This document shows positions 8,099 through 25,132 of a DNA stretch of 64,000 nucleotides, piece by piece (positions within the stretch are counted from its first letter, which is position 1; every line of letters begins with the position of its first letter). The notes under the pieces are model-generated. The model searched no databases. It was not told the DNA's origin and saw nothing but the letters and a program-made list of their open reading frames with translations. The DNA comes from Clostridia bacterium (GTDB lineage: Bacteria; Bacillota; Clostridia; CAKSNL01; HGM11501), in the NCBI GenBank assembly GCA_045545475.1, contig JAZQAZ010000034.1, forward strand, positions 33,287-97,286, in the 5' to 3' direction. Made by a program: the position numbers and the translations under genes.

Positions 8099-8127
8099 GA
8101 CCTTACAATTTATAAGGAGAGATGACA

Positions 8128-9951
8128 ATGAAAAAGAAATTTTTTGCGGCAATATGTGTTTTTGTGCTTGCCATGGCGGCACTCACTCTTACTTCCTTTG
8201 CGGCAAGAAAGGAGAGTTTGCCCATAACTCTTCGCACAACGGGATATAAAACAGTGAATGAAACGGTAATTACAAGGTTTGAAGTTACCGAAATTGAATC
8301 TTACTACAATGACCAGATACAACTGTGCTTCGAAATGGACAGAATAGTGGTTTCCGGAAGCAACTCAATCAGCATGGAAGTGGACTGCTTCGATGCTGAG
8401 GGCGAATATATAAAAACGGTATACTTAAGTTCATACAGCGATTATATACTGGTACCCGACAATACCGCAACAATTGAACTTAAGGCAGATACCCCTGCAT
8501 CCGACAGCGAAAGCTATGTTTACCGCAAATATGTAGCATTATACAATATTGACGGGGCAACTGCACAGGTTACTAATATACAGGCAGCTACTTATCAGGA
8601 AAACGGATGGCGTACCGCAGCACAGTATAACAATATTAAGAGAACGCTTCCCATTAACCTGGTTTATGATGACGGTGATATTACAACTATAAGTGCATTT
8701 GATATTACAAAAGTAGAAACCGCATGGGATGGAGATCTCAGGCTGAGCTATTCGCTGGAATATGAGTATACAAGAGGATACAGCGGCCCATCTATATACA
8801 TAAGATGTTACAATTCTTCAAGAGAATGTGTTGATACAATGTTAGTTTCGGAGTACGGTTCATATGTGGATGTTCCCTATGATACCACCGATATTGAGCT
8901 GTTTACCAAGTATGGTGCAGCAGACAGCCAGAGCTATCTCATAAGCAATTATTCCACGATGTATTCATCCGACGGAAGAAGCATAGTTGTAAGTGATTTG
9001 CAGATATCTTCCTATGAGGCTGTGGGTTGGGCACTTGCGGTTCCCGTTTACGCTTATGAAAACGGAGAATTTACGAGAATGACTTATATAAGTCCTTATG
9101 ACGTTTCTTCGTGGCAGGCTGTAGGCTGGTACAGCTATGAAGAAACCTGCAATGCCGAAACCTTGTATGCAATGGATGAAAACGGTAAGTTTACGAGAAC
9201 ACTTAAGGTTCCGCAGAGGTTGGTATCTGCATATACGGCGGTTGGTTGGTATACCTATTCTCAGAAAAATGATATTGAAACTGCCGTAACTTTGTACGCA
9301 CCGGATGCAAACGGAAACTTCACAAGAACCATAAGCGTGCCTGCAAAGGATGTTGCCGCATATACGGCGGTTGGTTGGTATACAAAAGAGGAAGCCTTTA
9401 AGAAAACGAGTCTTCCTGTTATATTCTGCAATGCCAATGGCGGAACAATTACATTCAGTAACTTTACGGTTAACGGCGTAAGTAAAGATGATGACGGCAG
9501 AACAAAGATTGAATATGAAATCGGATACACAAATAACAGTAACTCGAATTTTAAGATTTTATATAATCTTTATGATGCGTACGGCAATCTTTACGGGTCC
9601 GTCACGAGCAGTCATACGACAAGAGGCTCAGAAAAGGAAAATTGGACACTCCGAACAGATAGTAAAATTGCAAAAATTGAAATAAAATTAGACGGCGGAG
9701 CAAGTAACAGCCAGACTTATGTATACAGTAATATGATAACAGTATATGCCTCCGACGGAAGAACCATGGAAATTTATGATTTGCAGCTTCCCGTTTACGA
9801 AGCTGTGGGCTGGTACTCATCGCCGGAAGCGGCAAATGCTCCTCCTCCCGGGTCCGAGCCGGAAGAACCCCAGGAGCCGGAAGAACCGGCTGCAGGTTCA
9901 GCCCCCAAAGGTGAAAAGCCTTCCAAGCCCAGCAGACCTCCACGCTCATAA
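8128..9951 (+). CDS. Secreted modular repeat protein with reiterated Y-x-A-V-G-W-Y motifs and a Pro-rich basic tail
   Basis: Signal peptide (KKKFFAAICVFVLAMAALTLTSFA). Three modules of about 130 aa, each ending ..DG(R/A)..V....Q...YEAVGW. Three repeats of about 40 aa (LYA.D.NG.FTRT..VP...V.AYTAVGWY). No family recognised. Confidence 0.7.
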   Translation: MKKKFFAAICVFVLAMAALTLTSFAARKESLPITLRTTGYKTVNETVITRFEVTEIESYYNDQIQLCFEMDRIVVSGSNSISMEVDCFDAEGEYIKTVYLSSYSDYILVPDNTATIELKADTPASDSESYVYRKYVALYNIDGATAQVTNIQAATYQENGWRTAAQYNNIKRTLPINLVYDDGDITTISAFDITKVETAWDGDLRLSYSLEYEYTRGYSGPSIYIRCYNSSRECVDTMLVSEYGSYVDVPYDTTDIELFTKYGAADSQSYLISNYSTMYSSDGRSIVVSDLQISSYEAVGWALAVPVYAYENGEFTRMTYISPYDVSSWQAVGWYSYEETCNAETLYAMDENGKFTRTLKVPQRLVSAYTAVGWYTYSQKNDIETAVTLYAPDANGNFTRTISVPAKDVAAYTAVGWYTKEEAFKKTSLPVIFCNANGGTITFSNFTVNGVSKDDDGRTKIEYEIGYTNNSNSNFKILYNLYDAYGNLYGSVTSSHTTRGSEKENWTLRTDSKIAKIEIKLDGGASNSQTYVYSNMITVYASDGRTMEIYDLQLPVYEAVGWYSSPEAANAPPPGSEPEEPQEPEEPAAGSAPKGEKPSKPSRPPRS

Positions 9952-15812: not shown

Positions 15813-15828
15813 AAATGCTTTAGCTATC

Positions 15829-15862
15829 GGCATAACGCTTTGGCGTTGTGCCTTTTATTTTT
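15829..15862. repeat. Left copy of a 34-bp perfect direct repeat (orphan copy of the araC-family gene 3' end)
   Basis: ggcataacgctttggcgttgtgccttttattttt is identical to 16407-16440. On the minus strand it reads KIKGTTPKRYA followed by DS*. Confidence 0.9.
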
Positions 15863-16358
15863 ATGTATCGGATAACATGTTGCATATGTCTCTGACAATA
15901 TCATCAATATTTTTTTCTGCTGTAATAGGTGTTTCGTTCAACACATCGGAAAAATCTTTTTCGCGCCACCATCTGCGCATATCTTCCTCACCAAATTCAT
16001 GGCAATTGGATTTTGTCTGATGTCTCTTCAAAGTTTCCTCGAAAGGTAAATCAAAATAGAAAGCGTATATTTCCGAATTATATAGTTTATTGGAGAGTTC
16101 AAATAATGGCTTATACCAATCTGCATTCATTATTCCTTCCAATATAACGATATCGCAATGCTTGTGACCGTATATCAAAAGTTCTTTCATAAGCGGCAGT
16201 GCGAGGGTGTTTTCGCCATCTTTAACTTTAAGCATATCTCTTCTTATTACATCCTGCGAAATAAGCATAGTATTAAATCCGAATCTGTCTTGTAATTCTC
16301 TCGCAATCGTGGATTTTCCGCTGCCTGAATTACCTCGGAGTATAATTAATTTTTTCAT
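15861..16358 (-). CDS. P-loop kinase / AAA-type NTPase (165 aa)
   Basis: Walker A ILRGNSGSGKSTIA close to the N-terminus. Size and layout fit a small-molecule or nucleotide kinase fold. RBS agaggtg. Confidence 0.7.
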   Translation of the reverse strand: MKKLIILRGNSGSGKSTIARELQDRFGFNTMLISQDVIRRDMLKVKDGENTLALPLMKELLIYGHKHCDIVILEGIMNADWYKPLFELSNKLYNSEIYAFYFDLPFEETLKRHQTKSNCHEFGEEDMRRWWREKDFSDVLNETPITAEKNIDDIVRDICNMLSDT

Positions 16359-16394: not shown

Positions 16395-17216
16395 CTAAAT
16401 ATCATTGGCATAACGCTTTGGCGTTGTGCCTTTTATTTTTTTAAAAAGCTGAACGAAATAGGGAACGTCGGAAAAGCCTGAGCCTTCCGCCGCTTCCGAC
16501 ACGGAAGAGCCGTTTTTAAGCATCTTGCATGCCTCGGAAATCCTTACCCCGTTAAGATAGGAAAGGTATGTAATTCCCGCACTTTCCCGAAACTTTGTGC
16601 AGAAATAAAACTTACTGTAGCCCATTTTTTCCGCTATGTCGGAAATAGAAATTTTCTCACGGAAATGAAGCTTGGTATAGTTTATAATTTCCCGAAGCTC
16701 ACTTTCGTCAAAGGCGTTACCCGATGGGAGAACTTCCTCACGGCTGAAGGTGCGAAGATGAGAAAAAAGGGATACGGCAATGCTTGTTGCCGAAAATATA
16801 TCTTCGGCTTTTGCCAAAGCGTTCACAATGGGCAAAATTTCATCAAAGCAGTCGGGATTTACGTCAATTGACATAAGGCTTTTTCCCTCGGATGCCAAAA
16901 GTGCCTCAAAGCTCAAAAAGGGCGAAAAGCCCTCGGGGGAAAGCTTTACGTTTAAGAGATTACCGCTGCTTTTTTTATAGCTCATTGAATGAACTGTTTC
17001 CGGCGGAATATAAAAAACCTGATTGCCCGACAGCTTATAGCGGTGTCCTCCTATAATCACCTCGCCCGTCGCCCCTGAAAAAAGCAAAATCTCAACAGTT
17101 TCCGCATAGTGGGGTGCGACAAGCTCATCACGGTCAAAGGTCGTATAAATCACCGAAAAAGGTATGCTTTTTGAAAAATCTTTATGCTCTTTAAAAGCGG
17201 TGAAAATATTGTTCAT
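16395..17216 (-). CDS. AraC family transcriptional regulator (cupin sensor plus HTH)
   Basis: C-terminal AraC HTH (ISDIAEKMGYSKFYFCTKFRE..G.T...YL). Divergent from the glycyl-radical-enzyme operon. Confidence 0.85.
   Translation of the reverse strand: MNNIFTAFKEHKDFSKSIPFSVIYTTFDRDELVAPHYAETVEILLFSGATGEVIIGGHRYKLSGNQVFYIPPETVHSMSYKKSSGNLLNVKLSPEGFSPFLSFEALLASEGKSLMSIDVNPDCFDEILPIVNALAKAEDIFSATSIAVSLFSHLRTFSREEVLPSGNAFDESELREIINYTKLHFREKISISDIAEKMGYSKFYFCTKFRESAGITYLSYLNGVRISEACKMLKNGSSVSEAAEGSGFSDVPYFVQLFKKIKGTTPKRYANDI
16407..16440. repeat. Right copy of the 34-bp direct repeat (functional 3' end of the araC-family gene)
   Basis: Identical to 15829-15862. Here it encodes KIKGTTPKRYA followed by NDI*. 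Confidence 0.9.
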
Positions 17217-17323
17217 AGCCCCATTATATATTAAATAACAAAATATTGCAACATTTTTCCTTAATATTTCCCATTGAAACGGGACTTTTTTCGCACTATA
17301 ATATAATAAAAGGAGGTTTTATT

Positions 17324-18427
17324 ATGATTAAAGCTGTAATTATTGGTTGTGCACATATGCACGTTAACGAAATTGCCTTATATATAACCGAGGCGGAGGG
17401 GATAAATCTGGTTGCCGCCGCCGACCTTGTGCCGGATACCGCAGAAATCGTAAAGGCGAGATACACAAGGGACTGGAATAAGGAAAACATTAAAAATAAC
17501 TATTGTGACAACATTTACGACGACTATATTAAAATGCTTGATACTGAAAAGCCTGACTGGGCGTTTATCTTAACGGAGAACAAAAACAAGCCTGCCGTGG
17601 TGGAAGAGTGTGCAAAAAGGGGAATTAACGTAAGCATCGAAAAGCCCATTGCCGTAAGCTATGAAGAGGCATTAAAAATCGAAGAATCCGTTAATAAGTA
17701 CGACATCGAGGCAATTGTAAACTGGCCCGTAATCTGGCGCCCCTATATGTATGAAATGATAAATGCATATAGACTCGGTCTGGTGGGAGACCTTAAAAAG
17801 CTTTACTACATAAACGGTCACACAGGCCCCCTTGGTGCAGGTGCAAAGCACAGAGGCGTTTCCGACACCGCCGAGGAAATGACGGACGAGGCAAGAAGCA
17901 AAACCTGGTGGTATCAGAAGAATCAGGGCGGCGGTGCCATCCTTGACATTCTGTGCTACGGTGCAATGTATTCTGCACTATTACAGGAAGGCGATGCAAA
18001 AAGCGTTTATGCCTATTCCGACAACTTAAATACGCCCTACTCCGATGCGGAGGACAACGTGAGTGCGGTAATCAAATACGATAACACCTACACCGTTGCC
18101 GAGGGAACATGGACAATTCCTCAGCTTGTTCTTCCTGGCGGCCCCGTACTTATGTGCGAAAAGGGTGCAATTTACACTAAAAAGGAAGACGGTGTATGCA
18201 CCGTTCTCGCTGTTGATATGTACGGAAATCCCTTGGAAATTCCCAAATGCGAATTTCCAAAGTATATGAAAAACATTGCAGAGCATCTTACTTATGTAAA
18301 GAAAACGGGTTCGCCCCTTACAAAGGAAGTAACCCTTTCACAGAATATGAAGGTTATGGCAATTTTAGATGCGGCGAAAAAATCCACCGAATCGGGATGC
18401 GAGGAAAAGGTAGTATGCAGACCGTAA
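17324..18427 (+). CDS. Gfo/Idh/MocA family NAD(P)-dependent oxidoreductase
   Basis: N-terminal Rossmann segment MIKAVIIGCAHMHVNE and the EKP motif (VSIEKPIAVS). ATG 17324 follows aaaggagg. Confidence 0.85.
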   Translation: MIKAVIIGCAHMHVNEIALYITEAEGINLVAAADLVPDTAEIVKARYTRDWNKENIKNNYCDNIYDDYIKMLDTEKPDWAFILTENKNKPAVVEECAKRGINVSIEKPIAVSYEEALKIEESVNKYDIEAIVNWPVIWRPYMYEMINAYRLGLVGDLKKLYYINGHTGPLGAGAKHRGVSDTAEEMTDEARSKTWWYQKNQGGGAILDILCYGAMYSALLQEGDAKSVYAYSDNLNTPYSDAEDNVSAVIKYDNTYTVAEGTWTIPQLVLPGGPVLMCEKGAIYTKKEDGVCTVLAVDMYGNPLEIPKCEFPKYMKNIAEHLTYVKKTGSPLTKEVTLSQNMKVMAILDAAKKSTESGCEEKVVCRP

Positions 18428-19194
18428 AAGGAATCGTCGCTGACATTCAGCGCTCATCCATCCACGACGGGCCGGGGATAAGAACCACCGTGTTCTTAAA
18501 GGGCTGTCCCTTAAACTGCAGTTGGTGTCACAACCCCGAATGTATAAAAAAAGAGCCCGAAACCCTTTTCTATCCCGAAAAGTGCATCGGCTGTAATATG
18601 TGCGATAAGGGTTGTTTTTCCGGGGCAAAAGTCATTTGCGGAAAGGAAATGACTTCTTACGAGGTTTTAGCCGAGGTTATGCTTGATAAGGCATATTATA
18701 AAAACGATGGCGGCGTCACTTTCTCGGGGGGCGAGCCTATGCTGCAAAAGGAATTTGTGGCGCACCTTTCCGACCTTTGTCACGAAAACGGAATCAACAC
18801 AGCCATTGAAACATCAATGTATATTTTCGACAGCGACGTTTTATCGAAAATGGACTACATAATGTGCGACGTTAAAATATGGGATGACGAAAAGCACAAA
18901 AAATACACCGGCGTGTCGGGCGAAAAAATAAGGGAAAACATTAAAAAAGCGGATAAGCTTGGTATCCCGATTTTAATAAGAACGCCCATAATACCGGGAA
19001 TTAATGACACGGTTGATGAAATTAAAAACATAAAAAGCTTCGTTATGTCCCTTGAAAATGCGGCAGGTTATGAGCTTTTGCCCTATCATCCGCTGGGAGA
19101 CGGGAAGAGGGCGGCGTTGGGACTTATCGCACCCGAATTTAACATTCCCGAAAAAGAAAAAATGGAGGAATTAAAAAGCTATGCTCACATATAA
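18415..19194 (+). CDS. Glycyl-radical enzyme activating protein (radical SAM)
   Basis: SIHDGPGIRTTVFLKGCPLNCSWCHNPE (CX3CX2C) plus an auxiliary CIGCNMCDKGC cluster motif. Overlaps the upstream gene by 13 nt and the downstream gene by 14 nt. Confidence 0.9.
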   Translation: MQTVKGIVADIQRSSIHDGPGIRTTVFLKGCPLNCSWCHNPECIKKEPETLFYPEKCIGCNMCDKGCFSGAKVICGKEMTSYEVLAEVMLDKAYYKNDGGVTFSGGEPMLQKEFVAHLSDLCHENGINTAIETSMYIFDSDVLSKMDYIMCDVKIWDDEKHKKYTGVSGEKIRENIKKADKLGIPILIRTPIIPGINDTVDEIKNIKSFVMSLENAAGYELLPYHPLGDGKRAALGLIAPEFNIPEKEKMEELKSYAHI

Positions 19195-21397
19195 AGACAG
19201 ACTTTCAAGTATGAGGGAAACAAAAATCCGTCATACTCTCTTAAAAAGAAAGCAAAACGGCTTTACCGATTTAGACGATTTCGGCACAGTGCCCATTTCC
19301 GAGGGCTATGCCGTAACACCCTGGTACAACAGCGAAAACGGAAGCTTTTACGGACTTGACGGAATGTGTGAAAACTTCTGCCGTGTACTTGATGCCCACG
19401 AGCCATATGTTGACCCCATGGAAATGCTTTGCGGTCGCTGGAGAGATATGCTTGTAAACTACAGAGGCGACCTTCACTATATGCCCGACTGGCTTAAGAA
19501 CAACCTTAAAAATCTTGAGTTTATCAAAAACGGTGCCACAAATCAGTGGAGTAAGCGTTGGGACGAACAGCGTTTTCCCTATGACCACTTAAAGCCCTGG
19601 CAGGAAAAGTACAACATCACCACCGGCATTGACGGGGATGCCCACTTTGCCTGCGACTATAAAATCGGCTTTGAGCTTGGCTTTGGCGGTTTCCTTGACA
19701 AAATTAAAAAATACCGCGAAATAAATCCCGATAAAAAGGCGTTTTACGATGCGGAAGAGCGATGCGTTCTTGCGATAGTTGCCTTTATCGACCGCCATAT
19801 TGCAAAAATCGGAGAGATGATAAAAACGGAAAACCGCTCCGAAATAAAGGAAAATCTTGAAACGATGAAAAAGGTCTGTGAAAATATTCGCCTGGGTGCA
19901 CCGCAAACCTTCCACGAGGCTTGTCAATGGACGGCGTTTTTCAACTGCGCATCCCGAATTTACACCCGTGACGGTGCAGGCTTTCAGCTTGACGGGCTTT
20001 TATATCCCTTCTACGAAAAGGACGTAAAGGACGGAATAATAGACGATGAAACAGCAAAATTCTTAATTGCAAACCTTCTTTTAATTGATCCCCATTACTA
20101 TCAGATTTCGGGCGTTGACGAAAATGATTGCGATATGACAAATAAGCTTTCCTACCTTATTCTTGACGCGGCAGATTCCATAAACATCGCCTGCAACTTA
20201 ACCGTAAGGGTGCATCCTGCCTGCGATAAGGAGTTTCTTAAGAAAGCGGTTTCCTGCCTTCTTAAAAATAAAAACGGATGGCCCAGATTCTGTAACGATA
20301 AAGCTCTTTGCGAGGGCTATATGAGAAACGGCGTGGACAAGAAAACCGCCCGTGAAAGAATTGCCGTGGGCTGTAACTGGATGTGCGTGCCCGGCAAGGA
20401 ATTCCCCATGAATGACACGGTAAAAATCAACGTGGCAAAGGTTATGGAAGAAGCCTTAAAGGATATGAAATCGGAAAAGGAAAAATCCACCACCCGACTT
20501 TTTGAAATTTACAATGAGCATCTTAAAAAAGCGGTTGAAATCACCGCCGAGGGCATAAATCTTCATATTGACCACGCCCACGACGTAACCCCCGAGCTTA
20601 TTATGAATTTAATGATGCATAACACTTTGGAAAAAGGCCTTGATATATCAGAGTGTGCCTCTCTTTACACCGTGGGCATTGACGGAGCGGGCCTTGCTGT
20701 GGTTGCCGATTCCTTCGGTGCTATGGAAAGCCGCATCGAAAAGGAAAAACTTCTTACCTGGGATGAGCTTTACGGGGCACTGGAGAGTAATTTTGCCGAT
20801 GAGCGAATCCGCCTTATGTTAAATTCAGCACCCCGCTACTGCGGCGGCGAAACGGTGTCGGATATTTGGGCAAATCGTCTTACAGAGTCCTGGGTTAAAA
20901 CCGTCAAGGGGCAGAAAATGCCTGAGGGCAGGTGTTTAGTTCCCGGTTGGTTTTCCTGGAGCAGAACCATTGAATATGGTTCTAAGGTTGGCGCAACCCC
21001 CAACGGCAGAAGGGCAGGGGAGCCCATTTCCCATGGTGCAAACCCCAATCCCGGCTTCCGTCGTGACGGTGCCGTTACCGCGCAGAGCGAGGGCATCGCA
21101 AAAATTCAGTGCGGCTACGGAAACACAGCACCGTTGCAGCTTGAGTTTGATCCCAATCTTGCAAATGACGAGGCGGGAATTGACACGGTTACAAGCTTAA
21201 TTGAAGCACATTTTGAAAACGGCGGAACATTAATAAACATCAACATCCTTGATAAGGATAAGCTTCTTGCCGCCAACGAAAACCCCGACCTTTACCCCGA
21301 CCTGGTTGTAAGAGTAACAGGCTTCACCGCATATTTTGCAAGCCTTTCACCACGTTTCCGTCAGCTTGTGGTAGACAGGTTCTTAGAAGGTATGTAA
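19181..21397 (+). CDS. Glycyl radical enzyme (PFL-fold), uncharacterised subclass, 738 aa
   Basis: C-terminal fingerprint VVRVTGFTAYF (Gly714). Candidate thiyl Cys398 in AVGCNWMCVPGKE lies 316 residues upstream, comparable to PFL Cys419-Gly734. A dedicated activase lies upstream. Confidence 0.85.
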   Translation: MLTYKDRLSSMRETKIRHTLLKRKQNGFTDLDDFGTVPISEGYAVTPWYNSENGSFYGLDGMCENFCRVLDAHEPYVDPMEMLCGRWRDMLVNYRGDLHYMPDWLKNNLKNLEFIKNGATNQWSKRWDEQRFPYDHLKPWQEKYNITTGIDGDAHFACDYKIGFELGFGGFLDKIKKYREINPDKKAFYDAEERCVLAIVAFIDRHIAKIGEMIKTENRSEIKENLETMKKVCENIRLGAPQTFHEACQWTAFFNCASRIYTRDGAGFQLDGLLYPFYEKDVKDGIIDDETAKFLIANLLLIDPHYYQISGVDENDCDMTNKLSYLILDAADSINIACNLTVRVHPACDKEFLKKAVSCLLKNKNGWPRFCNDKALCEGYMRNGVDKKTARERIAVGCNWMCVPGKEFPMNDTVKINVAKVMEEALKDMKSEKEKSTTRLFEIYNEHLKKAVEITAEGINLHIDHAHDVTPELIMNLMMHNTLEKGLDISECASLYTVGIDGAGLAVVADSFGAMESRIEKEKLLTWDELYGALESNFADERIRLMLNSAPRYCGGETVSDIWANRLTESWVKTVKGQKMPEGRCLVPGWFSWSRTIEYGSKVGATPNGRRAGEPISHGANPNPGFRRDGAVTAQSEGIAKIQCGYGNTAPLQLEFDPNLANDEAGIDTVTSLIEAHFENGGTLININILDKDKLLAANENPDLYPDLVVRVTGFTAYFASLSPRFRQLVVDRFLEGM

Positions 21398-21415
21398 TAA
21401 GGAGAGGTAAAAAAG

Positions 21416-21515
21416 AGATTCTTCCTCGGCATAGCCTTCATCAGAATGACATAGGTGTACTATGCTGTCATTCTGATAGAGGGGATTCTGAAAGCCCCGA
21501 AGGAAGAATCTGAAA
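21416..21515. repeat. 100-bp MITE-like hairpin element
   Basis: Terminal inverted repeats agattcttcctcgg / ccgaaggaagaatct. Inner inverted repeat atcagaatgaca / tgtcattctgat. Flanked by direct repeats aaggaga(g/t)gtaaaaaa(a)g at 21399-21415 and 21516-21533. Confidence 0.65.
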
Positions 21516-21801
21516 AAGGAGATGTAAAAAAAGTCCAGACCGCAAAAAGGCAAATAAATTAGTGGGTTGGGCAAAGTTACAAACTCTATGTTGTAAAATA
21601 GTGTTGAAAAATCGCATTCCTGCGATTTTTCTTCATTTTGAGCCTTTTTGCTACGAACAAACTTCACCCTCAACGTATCTATATACGCCTTCGGGTAACT
21701 TTCGAAAAGTCTGTAAACAGACTTTCTCAATTCAGTTTGTCCGTTCTGAAGCATTTTTTCCTATCTCCTGAAAAAGGGGCTGTAATTATTTTACAGCCCC
21801 T

Positions 21802-24636
21802 TTATTTTACAAGATATGCACTTATTTCCTTTACGGTAATTGTACCTGCACCGGTATCTGTTTTGGGTGTAACGGATATTTTCTTAACACAGATTGGTTT
21901 TGTGAAAGTGTAAAGGGATGCACCTGTTGTTATGTCATAGTCGCTGACTCCAACGGACAGTTTATTTCCCTCCGAGTCATATATGTGAACTTCCATTTTC
22001 ATATATTCATCTGATAAGACTGCCGAAATGCTTACACCATCTATCACAAGACCTTCTTTGCCGGGAAACTCCACCATAAGAGTTTTGTCATGAAGAAAAT
22101 CAATGACTTCTGCACTGTCTGTTTCATCAAGAACTGCGGCGGCGGGAAGGTAGGAGGTGTCCTTTTCTATCTTATAGGCGGACCACCCTGTTTTGTTTAC
22201 GAAAGCCTTTTCTCCTGTGGAAGCGTTAAGTGTTGCTATAGTTTCGTCGTTATTTTTTGCTGTGAAGAGACCGCCTATGGCAATGCCACCAAATACGATA
22301 ATGGCAATAGAGGCGATGAGAACCATGAACTTGAAGTTTTTTCCGGAAACTATTTTATTGAAAACACGTTTAATCGGGGAATAATGCTCGCTTACTATTC
22401 CGGATATAACTTTTTTGAATTCCAAAGTGAGGTCTTTATATTCAGGGTGAAGTACCGATACATTATCAAGCTCTTTTTTCAGCTTTTTTATATTACGGTC
22501 ATTGGTTAAAAGTGTATTGTGACGAATGAAAAATTTACGCAGTGACTCATAAAATGATGTGAGGACGGTAAAGTCTGTTCTGATTCCGGGGATATCCCTT
22601 ACAATACGCCCGTTTTTGGTCATAGGTGGAATAAAGAGGTTTGATGATAAAAACCACTCTATGAATTCAAAGGGAGGAATTGATTGCTCCTTATCTATAA
22701 ATTCCAGAATGCTGTCAAAATCCACCTGAGCACGGGAATCCTTTGAACCGTAAATATAAAACAAAATTATGTAAACAATGCGTCTCGGAGAGTCCTTCTT
22801 TTCCTTTATACAACGGAGAAGTAGGGCTTTGAGCAAATCTTCTTTAGCTTTACCGTCTGATTGAGAGTCTGCAAAGTTTGCCCTTATGTTTTCAAAACCG
22901 AAGGCATCATAGTGAACAAATGACATGGCCATATCGTTGGTTAATGCCATTATTTCCTTTGCAGCCATTGCGATTTTGTGTTTGACAGTACATTCTTCGT
23001 TGATTGCTTCTCCGTCGGCAAGGGGGAATTTTTCAATTTTTGCAAGGTTGAGCTCCGAAATATCCAGCGTGGTCATATAGTTTTCAAGAGCATAACGATA
23101 AATTACGTTAAAGAGGGAGGCGTTATCAGGATGCTTGTCTTTAAGGGCAAGACACTTCTCCTCAAGATACTTAACTGCCTCAAAGCGGTCGCCCGAAGTA
23201 TCATAAAGTTGCATTGCTCTTTGCTGTATCATTGATATAATAAGCTCGCTGTCGGCAAGCTGAGGCATTTCGGAAAAAATACTGTCCGCAAATTCCATAA
23301 CCGAATGAACGGTTTTACGCTGTTCGATAAGATAGGTGAAATAGCGTGTTATTAAGCGGTTGCTTTTTGCCATTTTATGCTCTATTAATTTGTTATACAG
23401 CTCGCTGCTTCCTCTGGATGAGTCGATGTGCATGAAAAGAATTTCATTTTCCGAGGATTTAAGGCAGGAATCTATATCCAGCGTTATAAGGTCATAAAGT
23501 TCGTCTTTCTGCTTTTCTGGACAAAGGTCGTATGTTGAAACCAGTCTTTTGAGAATTTCCGGAGGGATCAGTATTTCCTTGCTTTTAATATAGCGTCTGT
23601 AAAGCTTTATAAATTCAGAATAAGAGGCGAGCAGACCTGGTTTGTCATCAGAACGCAAAAATTCTGCAAAAACTGTTGTAATTCTGCCGAGTCTTTGAGG
23701 AAGTGTTTCCTCGTTATCCTTTAAGTTATATATATAGGCAAGGTCGTTATAAAAACGCAGTGACAGAATTTTTTCTGTGGGAAAAGCACGTTCAGCTTCT
23801 CTGGCAAAAGCAAAAAAGTCTGAAAGTGAGGTGCCTGTGGCAAAGCTTGTTGATACAAAGGAAAGGTATTCCTCAGAAAGAGCTTCCTTTGTGTCAGGAA
23901 CCTGAGAACGGTTTTTCTTGCTGAAATTGAATATATAATCCTTTGAAGCGTCATAGGATTCGATTGAAAATCTTCCGCTGGGCGAGACTTTATCGTCGGG
24001 AATAAAGTAGATATTTATTTCGGGGCGAATCTCTGTTTCTCCGAAAAGAGTGCAAAAGCCGGTTTTGCTTCTCATAAAAAAGGGAAGGTATTCGTAGAGT
24101 CCGTACATTATGGCACATATTTTATCAATGTCTGTTTTTCTGGGAAGAGCAATGAAAATTTTTCTGTTTTGCTCAACAGATGCGAAAACAGCGGCGAGAA
24201 GTGCCATGTATTCTGTATGAGACATGTTAAGGGAGGCAAAAGCTTTTTTCAGGAAAGTGCTGCGTTCTTTTGTAAAAGGAAGTTCCTTTAGCGACGGCAG
24301 ATATGGGTTTTTTGCATCATCGGGTTCAGGGAGAGCCAAAATGGCAGCAGGGTCGGAAACAACGGCAGATACATCATCCTGAGGAATGATGTAATTATGG
24401 ATGCAGGAATAAGGTTCTGTAGCCGATTTCATTCCCGTGCCGATTAAAAGACCGCCACCCGATAAAGGAATGAAGCTTTTGTATCCGGGCGAGTCTTTGC
24501 CCTCTAGATAAAAGAGATCCAGCATGGAGTAAAAAGGACGGATTGCATTGTCGATATATTCTTCGGTTAACGTTGTGGATTTTGAAGAAGTTTCAAGTCC
24601 AATTCCCGTTTTTATGTAAATTTGCTGTTCTATCAT
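21802..24636 (-). CDS. Large orphan single-pass membrane protein (944 aa)
   Basis: Strong RBS aaaaaggagg. About 740 cytoplasmic residues, one TM helix (FKFMVLIASIAIIVFGGIAIGGLF), then a beta-rich exodomain of about 160 aa ending ..GAGTITVKEISAYLVK. No family recognised. Confidence 0.7.
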   Translation of the reverse strand: MIEQQIYIKTGIGLETSSKSTTLTEEYIDNAIRPFYSMLDLFYLEGKDSPGYKSFIPLSGGGLLIGTGMKSATEPYSCIHNYIIPQDDVSAVVSDPAAILALPEPDDAKNPYLPSLKELPFTKERSTFLKKAFASLNMSHTEYMALLAAVFASVEQNRKIFIALPRKTDIDKICAIMYGLYEYLPFFMRSKTGFCTLFGETEIRPEINIYFIPDDKVSPSGRFSIESYDASKDYIFNFSKKNRSQVPDTKEALSEEYLSFVSTSFATGTSLSDFFAFAREAERAFPTEKILSLRFYNDLAYIYNLKDNEETLPQRLGRITTVFAEFLRSDDKPGLLASYSEFIKLYRRYIKSKEILIPPEILKRLVSTYDLCPEKQKDELYDLITLDIDSCLKSSENEILFMHIDSSRGSSELYNKLIEHKMAKSNRLITRYFTYLIEQRKTVHSVMEFADSIFSEMPQLADSELIISMIQQRAMQLYDTSGDRFEAVKYLEEKCLALKDKHPDNASLFNVIYRYALENYMTTLDISELNLAKIEKFPLADGEAINEECTVKHKIAMAAKEIMALTNDMAMSFVHYDAFGFENIRANFADSQSDGKAKEDLLKALLLRCIKEKKDSPRRIVYIILFYIYGSKDSRAQVDFDSILEFIDKEQSIPPFEFIEWFLSSNLFIPPMTKNGRIVRDIPGIRTDFTVLTSFYESLRKFFIRHNTLLTNDRNIKKLKKELDNVSVLHPEYKDLTLEFKKVISGIVSEHYSPIKRVFNKIVSGKNFKFMVLIASIAIIVFGGIAIGGLFTAKNNDETIATLNASTGEKAFVNKTGWSAYKIEKDTSYLPAAAVLDETDSAEVIDFLHDKTLMVEFPGKEGLVIDGVSISAVLSDEYMKMEVHIYDSEGNKLSVGVSDYDITTGASLYTFTKPICVKKISVTPKTDTGAGTITVKEISAYLVK

Positions 24637-24706
24637 ATCCTTTTCCTCCTTTTTTGAAATTCATAAATATATTCTATCAAAAGTCAGTACATTTTTCAAG
24701 TTATTC

Positions 24707-24735
24707 TTGACAAATGAATGAAAATTTTTTATAAT
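24707..24735 (+). promoter_or_regulatory. Sigma-A-type promoter for tRNA-Thr
   Basis: ttgaca, 17-nt spacer, tataat, ending 20 nt before the tRNA 5' end. Confidence 0.6.
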
Positions 24736-24755
24736 ATTAAATGTTGTGAATATAT

Positions 24756-24831
24756 GCTGGTGTGGCTCAGTCGGTAGAGCAATTGATTCGTAATCAATAG
24801 ATCGTCGGTTCAAGTCCGATCACCAGCTCCA
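24756..24831 (+). tRNA. tRNA-Thr (anticodon CGT), CCA encoded
   Basis: Cloverleaf folded by hand: acceptor GCTGGTG/CACCAGC, D arm GCTC..GAGC, anticodon arm ATTGA-TTCGTAA-TCAAT, T arm GTCGG-TTCAAGT-CCGAT, discriminator T, CCA. Confidence 0.9.
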
Positions 24832-24871
24832 AAAAAGAGAGAGCTACGCAAAGCGTGGCTCTCTCTTTTTT
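24832..24871 (+). terminator. Terminator after tRNA-Thr
   Basis: aaaaaagagagagc..gctctctctttttt hairpin with a T run. Confidence 0.8.
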
Positions 24872-24894
24872 GAATCTTAATGACGGACTTGAAA

Positions 24895-24936
24895 GGGCGG
24901 TCCAAACAAACAGTCCGGCGGACTGTTTGTCCGCCC
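24895..24936. other. Long GC-rich hairpin of unknown role
   Basis: gggcgg-tc-caaa-caaacagtcc-ggc-ggactgtttg-t-ccgccc (10-bp inner plus 6-bp outer stem). Lies between tRNA T-loop-like fragments. Confidence 0.6.
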
Positions 24937-25132
24937 GTGGCTTTTCCGCAGAAAAGCAAGTCCGATCACAAATAAAAGTATAGCTGTTTTTTGAATTTGT
25001 AATTGGCGGAGCGAACTTGTCTTAGGCGAAATTACCCGAAGGGAATTTAGCCGGAGGCAACGCTCAAGGTCCGCCGTGAGGTTAAGCGTTGACTGATTAT
25101 GGGAGCGAACTTGTCTGGCGTGTTTTTTTCTA

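Follow-up and report, generated by a model that had tools for sequence, protein, structure and literature searches.

What is the protein encoded by the long open reading frame (ORF) at positions 21802 to 24636, minus strand, of a 64,000-nucleotide stretch of a Clostridia bacterium genome (contig JAZQAZ010000034.1; the whole stretch is hereafter the window), and why does its gene stand beside a tRNA-Thr gene? A first-pass annotation of this DNA had described the product, 944 amino acids (aa) long, as an orphan without a recognizable catalytic motif. According to our analysis, the 944-aa protein is instead predicted to be anchored in the membrane and to belong, as a divergent member, to GAP1 (“GTPase-associated protein 1”), a conflict-system family defined by computation. 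It is part of a GAP1-like lineage, here called solo, whose genes lack the usual neighboring GTPase gene and which was found in a small group of gut Clostridia.

The only Pfam match of the protein is to GAP1-M (PF20014), at residues 144-221, with a score of 24.4 bits against a cut-off of 24 (E 3.6e-5). We recovered full-length relatives (n = 21; 941-1004 aa, 42-99% identity), all from uncultured gut Clostridia or Bacillota, and GAP1-M was matched by every one of them (21/21; best E 3.6e-8). Public precomputed Pfam annotation already assigns PF20014 to some family members. A search of 1.84 billion representative proteins with a profile of the solo family returned 174 relatives at E <= 1e-3, including 129 at E <= 1e-10. 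The alignments of distant relatives mostly covered the first ~310 residues, with some covering 550-670, and all 10 of the distant relatives that were scanned are proteins with both GAP1-N2 and GAP1-M, the GAP1-N2 scores reaching 167 bits. One intermediate protein, P0022, which is 28% identical to the 944-aa protein, clears the GAP1-N2 cut-off at 31.9 bits. When the solo family was aligned to 30 canonical GAP1-N2 proteins with hhalign, the two were matched at a probability of 100% (E 2.1e-55, 704 columns), in an alignment that runs from residue 1 to ~760, just short of the transmembrane (TM) helix. Because the match recurs in all 21 relatives and agrees with both the distant-relative search and the profile-profile comparison, we regard the borderline GAP1-M match as genuine, and sequence comparison supports homology of the whole cytoplasmic part to canonical GAP1. 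Profile searching therefore assigns the supposed orphan to a known family, and this family is not the housekeeping family that the first-pass annotation had named as the outcome that would overturn its reading.

The cytoplasmic part can be divided into three regions. Residues 1-130 (24247..24636, minus strand) form a degenerate GAP1-N2-like domain, which aligns to canonical GAP1-N2 and gives no Pfam GAP1-N2 match; neither GAP1-N type (N1/N2, PF20012/PF20013) was matched at E <= 1 by the 944-aa protein or at E <= 0.1 by any of the 21 relatives. Confidence in the structure model is low for the first 23 residues. Two of the canonical N2 motifs have been shortened in the solo family: QQYYTR.R.GIFRS.EG.DT.AKS by an 8-residue deletion that removes R.GIFRS, and ADFTG.R..F.THNY by a 6-residue deletion that removes DFTG.R. 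A third, HPFC.YD.P, carries substitutions. Across canonical positions conserved at 90% or more, 30 of 79 are kept in the solo family (10 of 37 in N2, 12 of 27 in M and 8 of 15 in the helical region). Residues 131-260 (23857..24246, minus strand) constitute the alpha/beta GAP1-M domain identified by PF20014, with its LP..R...GF.T..E signature retained. Residues 261-765 (22342..23856, minus strand) align to canonical GAP1 as the equivalent of its GAP1-C/helical region and are the best-conserved part of the solo family. In the structure model, which has a mean predicted local distance difference test (pLDDT) score of 79 overall, this region is all-helical, with pLDDT mostly >90 (>90 across residues ~270-630), and resembles an ARM/HEAT-like solenoid. 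Its Foldseek matches to BIRC6 and karyopherins appear generic for the solenoid fold class. The description of the cytoplasmic part as largely helical holds for residues ~261-765 and fails for residues ~50-260, which are alpha/beta.

An earlier statement that the protein has no P-loop, helix-turn-helix (HTH) or nuclease motif was upheld. We found no Walker A motif in the 944-aa protein, and no catalytic, HTH or nuclease family for it in Pfam, NCBIfam, PADLOC or PHROGs; PADLOC and PHROGs gave zero matches of any kind and NCBIfam nothing meaningful. Solved structures were likewise searched by sequence, with the protein itself and with profiles of the family, the canonical proteins and the ectodomain, and nothing significant was returned.

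GAP1 is defined as the partner of DO-GTPases, and its N2 type serves as the scaffold of predicted DO-GTPase-centric conflict systems (Kaur, Burroughs, Iyer & Aravind, eLife 2020; Pfam PF20013/PF20014; PMC7159879). In the description of these authors, GAP1 and the DO-GTPase co-evolve as a closely linked pair whose members are not exchanged; they also infer that the GAP1-N type mirrors and co-evolves with the GTPase type, and report that many GAP1-N2 proteins carry TM helices and extracellular beta-rich domains (PMC7159879). A GAP1 gene is expected directly behind a DO-GTPase gene or fused to it, and a system of the N2 type is expected to include a linked protein with FNIII repeats and one of several themes (tubulin/vWA, HSP70/GrpE or kinase/PP2C). 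Two of the canonical relatives that we examined, P0029 (locus L023, 1-12712) and P0028 (locus L024, 510-12340), lie in textbook Firmicute GAP1-N2 operons with the order vWA, Tubulin_2, a ~750-aa protein, a second vWA (P0029 only), a ~215-aa protein, DO-GTPase and GAP1. In both operons the stop codon of the GTPase gene overlaps the start of the GAP1 gene. The 788-aa and 215-aa members of the L023 operon match no Pfam family.

None of these partners accompanies the solo genes. Our search for a DO-GTPase covered the 64-kb window and flanks of up to 10 kb around the family loci, and neither a GTPase gene nor one for a tubulin, vWA or FNIII protein was detected within 8-10 kb, be it around the gene in the window, in six other distinct family contexts or at the P0022 locus. 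The only P-loop ORFs in the window are an AAA_33 kinase-like protein, an ABC ATPase and one unassigned ORF of 234 aa, none of them GTPase-like. HSP70/GrpE or kinase/PP2C themes were also absent from the called genes of the family loci and the neighbors in the window. Solo and canonical GAP1-N2 proteins are thus homologous from residue 1 to the TM helix and alike in GAP1-M signature, domain order, length and the single TM helix at ~770 followed by an extracellular beta-rich domain. They differ in that canonical genes neighbor DO-GTPase, tubulin and vWA genes whereas solo loci do not; in that the canonical N2 passes the Pfam model whereas the N2 of the solo family, with two conserved loops deleted, fails it; in that the canonical tails are unrelated to the solo ectodomain, which resembles a family 32 carbohydrate-binding module (CBM32); and in that the solo family alone is paired with tRNA-Thr(CGU). 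If the GAP1-N type mirrors the GTPase type, as Kaur et al. infer, loss of the neighboring GTPase and decay of N2 would be coherent events. A plausible order would run from a canonical operon (P0028-like) to a solo gene with a jelly-roll ectodomain (P0022-like), and then to further N2 decay and tRNA pairing.

The TM helix reported in the first-pass annotation was confirmed. A hydropathy scan places a single helix at residues 771-793 (22258..22326, minus strand), directly preceded by an invariant NFKF motif (N767 F768 K769 F770). The flanks of this helix show a positive-inside charge bias across the family (K+R, 5.1 on the N-terminal side vs 2.5 on the C-terminal side; D+E, 0.4 vs 3.0), and for this reason the predicted topology is N-in/C-out. 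One TM helix, at ~740-800, and a variable tail behind it are likewise found in most canonical GAP1 relatives, so an architecture that seems puzzling in isolation is the norm for the family.

The proposed beta-rich, discoidin/galactose-binding-like ectodomain was also supported, and with it the architecture of a large intracellular scaffold, one TM helix and a discoidin-like outer domain. Residues 795-944 (21805..22254, minus strand) are modeled as an all-beta domain of 150 aa with the galactose-binding-domain-like jelly-roll fold of CBM32, F5/8 type C (F5/8-C; discoidin) and fucolectin modules, at a sequence identity to its structural matches of mostly 7-19%. The predicted module is joined here to a TM helix and an extensive cytoplasmic scaffold rather than to a glycoside hydrolase. 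P0022 has the same ectodomain type (28% identity, E 2e-11), and the canonical GAP1 tails show no kinship to it (hhalign probability 0.1%); the jelly-roll ectodomain is therefore a hallmark of the solo lineage that was gained there. A comparable arrangement is found in the RsgI-type transmembrane polysaccharide sensors of Clostridia, which combine a cytoplasmic signaling domain, one TM helix and an extracellular CBM. RsgI is an anti-sigma factor paired with the SigI gene. The likeness extends to an extracellular carbohydrate-binding module, one TM helix and a cytoplasmic protein-interaction domain, but the two are not known to be homologous, no sigma factor is linked to the gene described here, and its cytoplasmic part is ~10 times larger.

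The transcription unit of the GAP1-like gene is compact. A ribosome-binding site (RBS), also seen in the first reading of this DNA, is present as GGAGG 8 nt 5' of the ATG (24645..24649, minus strand) and is kept in most relatives. A consensus scan placed the promoter at 24671..24699 (minus strand; TTGAAA, 17 nt, TAGAAT, with an upstream TG), which leaves a 5' untranslated region of only ~25 nt. The hexamers and their spacing are kept at 11/11 loci, in the form TTGAAA, 17 nt and either (TG)TAAAAT or TAGAAT. At the other end, an intrinsic, bidirectional terminator hairpin (21773..21803, minus strand) has perfect 13-nt arms that overlap the stop codon and a T run on both strands. With its own promoter-like site and terminator hairpin, the gene is predicted to be monocistronic.

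Divergently upstream, 119 bp from the ATG and in agreement with the earlier placement, lies the gene for tRNA-Thr(CGU) (CGT anticodon; 24756..24831, plus strand; ARAGORN, and Rfam at 73 bits). Its predicted promoter is a perfect TTGACA, 17 nt, TATAAT (24707..24735, plus strand; 12/12 consensus matches), which is kept at 11/11 loci, and its terminator hairpin (24830..24872, plus strand) has 20-nt arms that are 95% complementary, with A/T runs at the flanks. The -35 hexamers of the two promoters are 7 bp apart. Together the promoters make up a conserved back-to-back block (24663..24746, without strand) whose core, ATTTGTCAA.A.TAACTTGAAAA, and two -10 regions show no differences among at least 10 of 11 loci; for comparison, the tRNA has 79% mean pairwise identity with compensatory stem changes, and identity of the protein falls to 42%. 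We compared the 22-nt core with metagenome contigs and obtained five matches, four of which have the same tRNA/GAP1-like pair. The fifth (L025) lies in GC-rich coding DNA without a tRNA and was set aside as a chance match rather than a family locus.

The tRNA-Thr(CGU) gene was found divergently upstream at all 16 family loci that could be assessed, that is, 12 contigs from genomes or metagenome-assembled genomes (the window included) and 4 metagenome contigs with enough upstream sequence. At most loci 116-125 bp separate the tRNA from the gene; three others have gaps of 166, 197 and 245 bp. The outer neighbors of the pair differ in at least six ways, counting both sides. Residual synteny is nonetheless visible: ilvN-ilvB-glsA lies beside the tRNA in the 79% and 66% identical relatives, ilvBN in the 63% relative, and a DHDPS gene near several distant relatives. 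No tRNA adjoins the canonical GAP1 loci or P0022. We conclude that the tRNA-Thr/GAP1-like gene pair has been inherited as a unit among relatives of 42-79% protein identity, with synteny that is eroding but traceable. Rfam finds the tRNA alone at this site, with no riboswitch, T-box or other known RNA between tRNA and gene. A codon-supply link to the tRNA was also considered and fails because ACG is not enriched in the gene: it makes up 9% of Thr codons there vs 17% in 33 other genes of the window (Fisher p = 0.14), and its share among relatives ranges from 7% to 54%.

To assess constraint on the gene, we compared it with its 79% identical relative (locus L009). The overall dN/dS was about 0.09, with regional values of 0.105 for N2, 0.087 for M, 0.082 and 0.038 for the helical region, 0.17 for the TM segment and 0.164 for the ectodomain, all of which are approximate since dS (~1.4) is near saturation. 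The dN of the gene is ~3 times that of the syntenic glsA and ilvB genes (0.129 vs ~0.044). Many positions in the helical core, the NFKF motif and the ectodomain are invariant in the family alignment. Every domain is therefore under purifying selection, and the gene is functional and fairly fast-evolving, not a pseudogene. Diversifying selection on the ectodomain is ruled out at the domain level (omega 0.16), and purifying selection in all domains argues against the arms race expected of the phage-receptor-type protein that had been suggested. The alternative suggestion from that source, a surface sensor or conflict-system protein, fits the homology of the cytoplasmic part to the GAP1 scaffold of predicted DO-GTPase conflict systems.

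The account that we favor is of a single-pass membrane protein (N-in, C-out) that would descend from the GAP1-N2 scaffold of DO-GTPase conflict operons and is not encoded with a GTPase, tubulin or vWA protein. Its ectodomain would bind a glycan outside the cell, either of the cell wall or of the environment, and the signal would pass across the membrane to the helical solenoid and the GAP1-M module. These may then recruit partners in the cytoplasm with no need of the ancestral GTPase switch encoded in cis. The gene's transcription could be coupled to the consensus tRNA promoter by promoter occlusion or supercoiling, in which case expression would track growth-rate control. Taken whole, with its glycan-sensing relay and promoter coupling, we consider this account about evenly balanced between right and wrong; real regulatory coupling between the tRNA promoter and the GAP1-like gene, taken by itself, is a tentative proposal that we find rather doubtful. 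Several points weigh against the account. These genomes could carry a DO-GTPase gene at another site, with a product that acts in trans. No CBM or F5/8-C family matches the ectodomain by sequence (Pfam, including PF00754, and a PDB profile search), and sugar-binding residues were not identified in it. The linkage to the tRNA may be passive and need no coupling, because two needed promoters within 120 bp leave no safe breakpoint. The near-saturated dS bears on the selection estimates. Finally, the literature searched holds no experimental GAP1 paper and there is no solved GAP1 structure, so every functional step above is inferred.

The first of these points leads to a rival explanation, that the protein is a working GAP1 of a DO-GTPase system whose GTPase and effectors (tubulin, vWA, FNIII) are encoded elsewhere, and that it acts as a trans regulator sensing invasion or envelope damage. 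Full homology of the cytoplasmic part, the retained GAP1-M signature, purifying selection in all domains and an architecture like that of GAP1-N2 proteins with TM and extracellular domains (PMC7159879) would all agree with it. The description of GAP1 and DO-GTPase as a non-exchanged pair (PMC7159879), the overlapping genes of both canonical relatives examined, the lack of a GTPase at any solo locus or in the window, the loss of almost every conserved polar position of N2 (10/37 conserved positions kept) and the lack of a PADLOC match make it unlikely. An equally modest place is due to a structural or housekeeping envelope protein, for example one that anchors or organizes cell-wall polysaccharide, with neither signaling nor a tRNA link. 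Vertical inheritance, single copy, purifying selection, a modeled glycan-binding-type ectodomain and a weak cell-wall theme among neighbors could be expected of such a protein, but a passive anchor hardly accounts for ~760 conserved residues in the cytoplasm that derive from a regulatory scaffold, and the neighbor theme is both weak and not conserved.

The reading given in the first-pass annotation, of a horizontally acquired island gene (phage receptor or defense) at a tRNA acquisition hotspot, now seems very unlikely. The tRNA does adjoin, the family is predicted to act in biological conflicts (PMC7159879), dN is ~3 times that of neighbors, and P0022 lies 3 kb from a serine recombinase. However, the gene is not AT-richer than the core genes as had been stated, its GC content being 0.400 vs 0.419 +/- 0.034 in the 33 other genes of the window (within 1 standard deviation), and an AT-rich island is thereby ruled out. 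Among the neighbors scanned there is no integrase, the tRNA 3' end is not duplicated as an att-like repeat, and no copies of a miniature inverted-repeat transposable element (MITE) were found. Islands that target tRNA genes insert at the tRNA 3' end. The GAP1-like gene stands on the other, promoter (5') side and has a promoter region in common with the tRNA. The pair is present at 16/16 assessable loci with protein identity down to 42%, synteny persists (ilvBN-glsA in close relatives, DHDPS in distant ones), each of the 10 genomes recovered among species representatives (10/10) has one copy of the gene, and the ectodomain is not diversifying. An inherited pair of normal composition thus replaces the hotspot. 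It is scarcely credible that the gene is a decaying remnant of a lost GAP1 operon, kept only by the promoter region in common with an essential tRNA. Its operon partners are lost and its N2 motifs have decayed, as this would require, but ORFs of 941-1004 aa are intact in 21 clusters down to 42% identity, each domain has a dN/dS below 0.2, the RBS and promoter are conserved, and invariant positions abound in the helical core, NFKF and ectodomain.

One structural comparison gave a lead on the fold of the cytoplasmic part. The model could be compared with DENND1A-Rab35 (PDB 6ekk) at a root-mean-square deviation of 4.5 Å, a value for which the aligned region is not reported; Foldseek does not recover this match, and no similarity is seen at the sequence level. 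DENN is held to be specific to eukaryotes, and DENN/d-DENN is known from the eukaryotic module alone (PMC3521125). The module (longin, DENN, d-DENN) of eukaryotic Rab guanine nucleotide exchange factors shares no sequence similarity with the 944-aa protein, and a GAP1-DENN link is mentioned in neither the GAP1 paper (PMC7159879) nor the DENN paper (PMC3521125). We therefore treat a DENN-like fold as a lead only and make no claim of membership. A bolder version, in which GAP1 N/M would be a bacterial DENN-like GTPase-regulator fold re-used without a GTPase as a glycan sensor of the envelope, with expression hard-wired to a tRNA promoter by the fixed back-to-back arrangement, is in our view quite improbable. 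If it were true, a regulatory unit of this sort, made of a protein gene and a tRNA gene, would be one not described before; and should canonical GAP1 prove to have a DENN-like fold, this would have implications for the prokaryotic origins of GTPase regulators in eukaryotes.

GAP1/DO-GTPase systems are known from one comparative-genomics paper, by computation only. GAP1 is therefore a known family, and the solo lineage is a variant of it with three features that we did not find described in the literature searched: the lack of a GTPase, the CBM32-like ectodomain and the tRNA-Thr(CGU) pairing. The lineage provides a natural separation-of-function case in which the whole GAP1 scaffold is kept and the cis GTPase and most conserved N2 residues are lost. 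It shows which GAP1 parts are able to work alone (the M domain, helical solenoid, TM helix and outer domain) and points to N2, the presumed GTPase-facing domain, as the GTPase interface. A sugar-binding-type ectodomain offers a concrete, testable input for the signals of the GAP1 family, and the invariant tRNA/gene pair with fixed promoter geometry offers a compact model for the question of whether divergent tRNA promoters control neighboring protein genes.

Some further observations concern the surroundings of the gene and its relatives. Three kb downstream of P0022 (locus L020, 15805-17322) is a large serine recombinase (Resolvase, Recombinase, Zn_ribbon_recom) with small HTH genes, which hints that P0022 may adjoin a mobile element. 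In the flanks of loci L001-L008 a weak cell-wall theme recurs (GH3, DHDPS, PdaC-like, Wzy_C, G5-M23 peptidase and Peptidase_S11), too little conserved to argue a functional link. Between the tRNA terminator and glsA (24880-25120), GC-rich hairpins occur at 24906-24930 and 25055-25094 and match no Rfam family.

On the 3' side of the GAP1-like gene, a cluster at 17246-21397 encodes a GFO/IDH/MocA oxidoreductase, a radical-SAM activase and a short (738-aa) PFL-like glycyl-radical enzyme. In the 79% identical relative, the 8 kb that follow the GAP1-like gene do not contain this cluster, which marks the 3' flank as a boundary of rearrangement between close relatives. Directly after the stop codon of the glycyl-radical enzyme gene, nested inverted repeats at 21416-21511 (an 11-bp outer stem and an imperfect 26-nt inner stem) correspond to what had been called a MITE-like element. 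They are single-copy within the window, which led us to reject that label, and may be a terminator or structured 3' element. An ORF of 123 aa with an AGGAG RBS (21383-21754, minus strand) begins just past the terminator of the GAP1-like gene; its C-terminal half crosses these repeats and extends over the stop codon of the glycyl-radical enzyme gene. No Pfam family matches this ORF, which is probably spurious or a gene remnant. Farther along, two terminator-like hairpin sequences of 37 nt that are 97% identical (15826-15862 and 16404-16440) lie on either side of an ORF (15861-16358, minus strand) for a 165-aa AAA_33 P-loop kinase-like protein, an arrangement that could be a small duplicated-terminator cassette. 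An imperfect 102-nt repeat at 9153-9383 (2 copies, 74% identity, 129-nt spacing) falls within a 609-aa ORF at 8122-9951.

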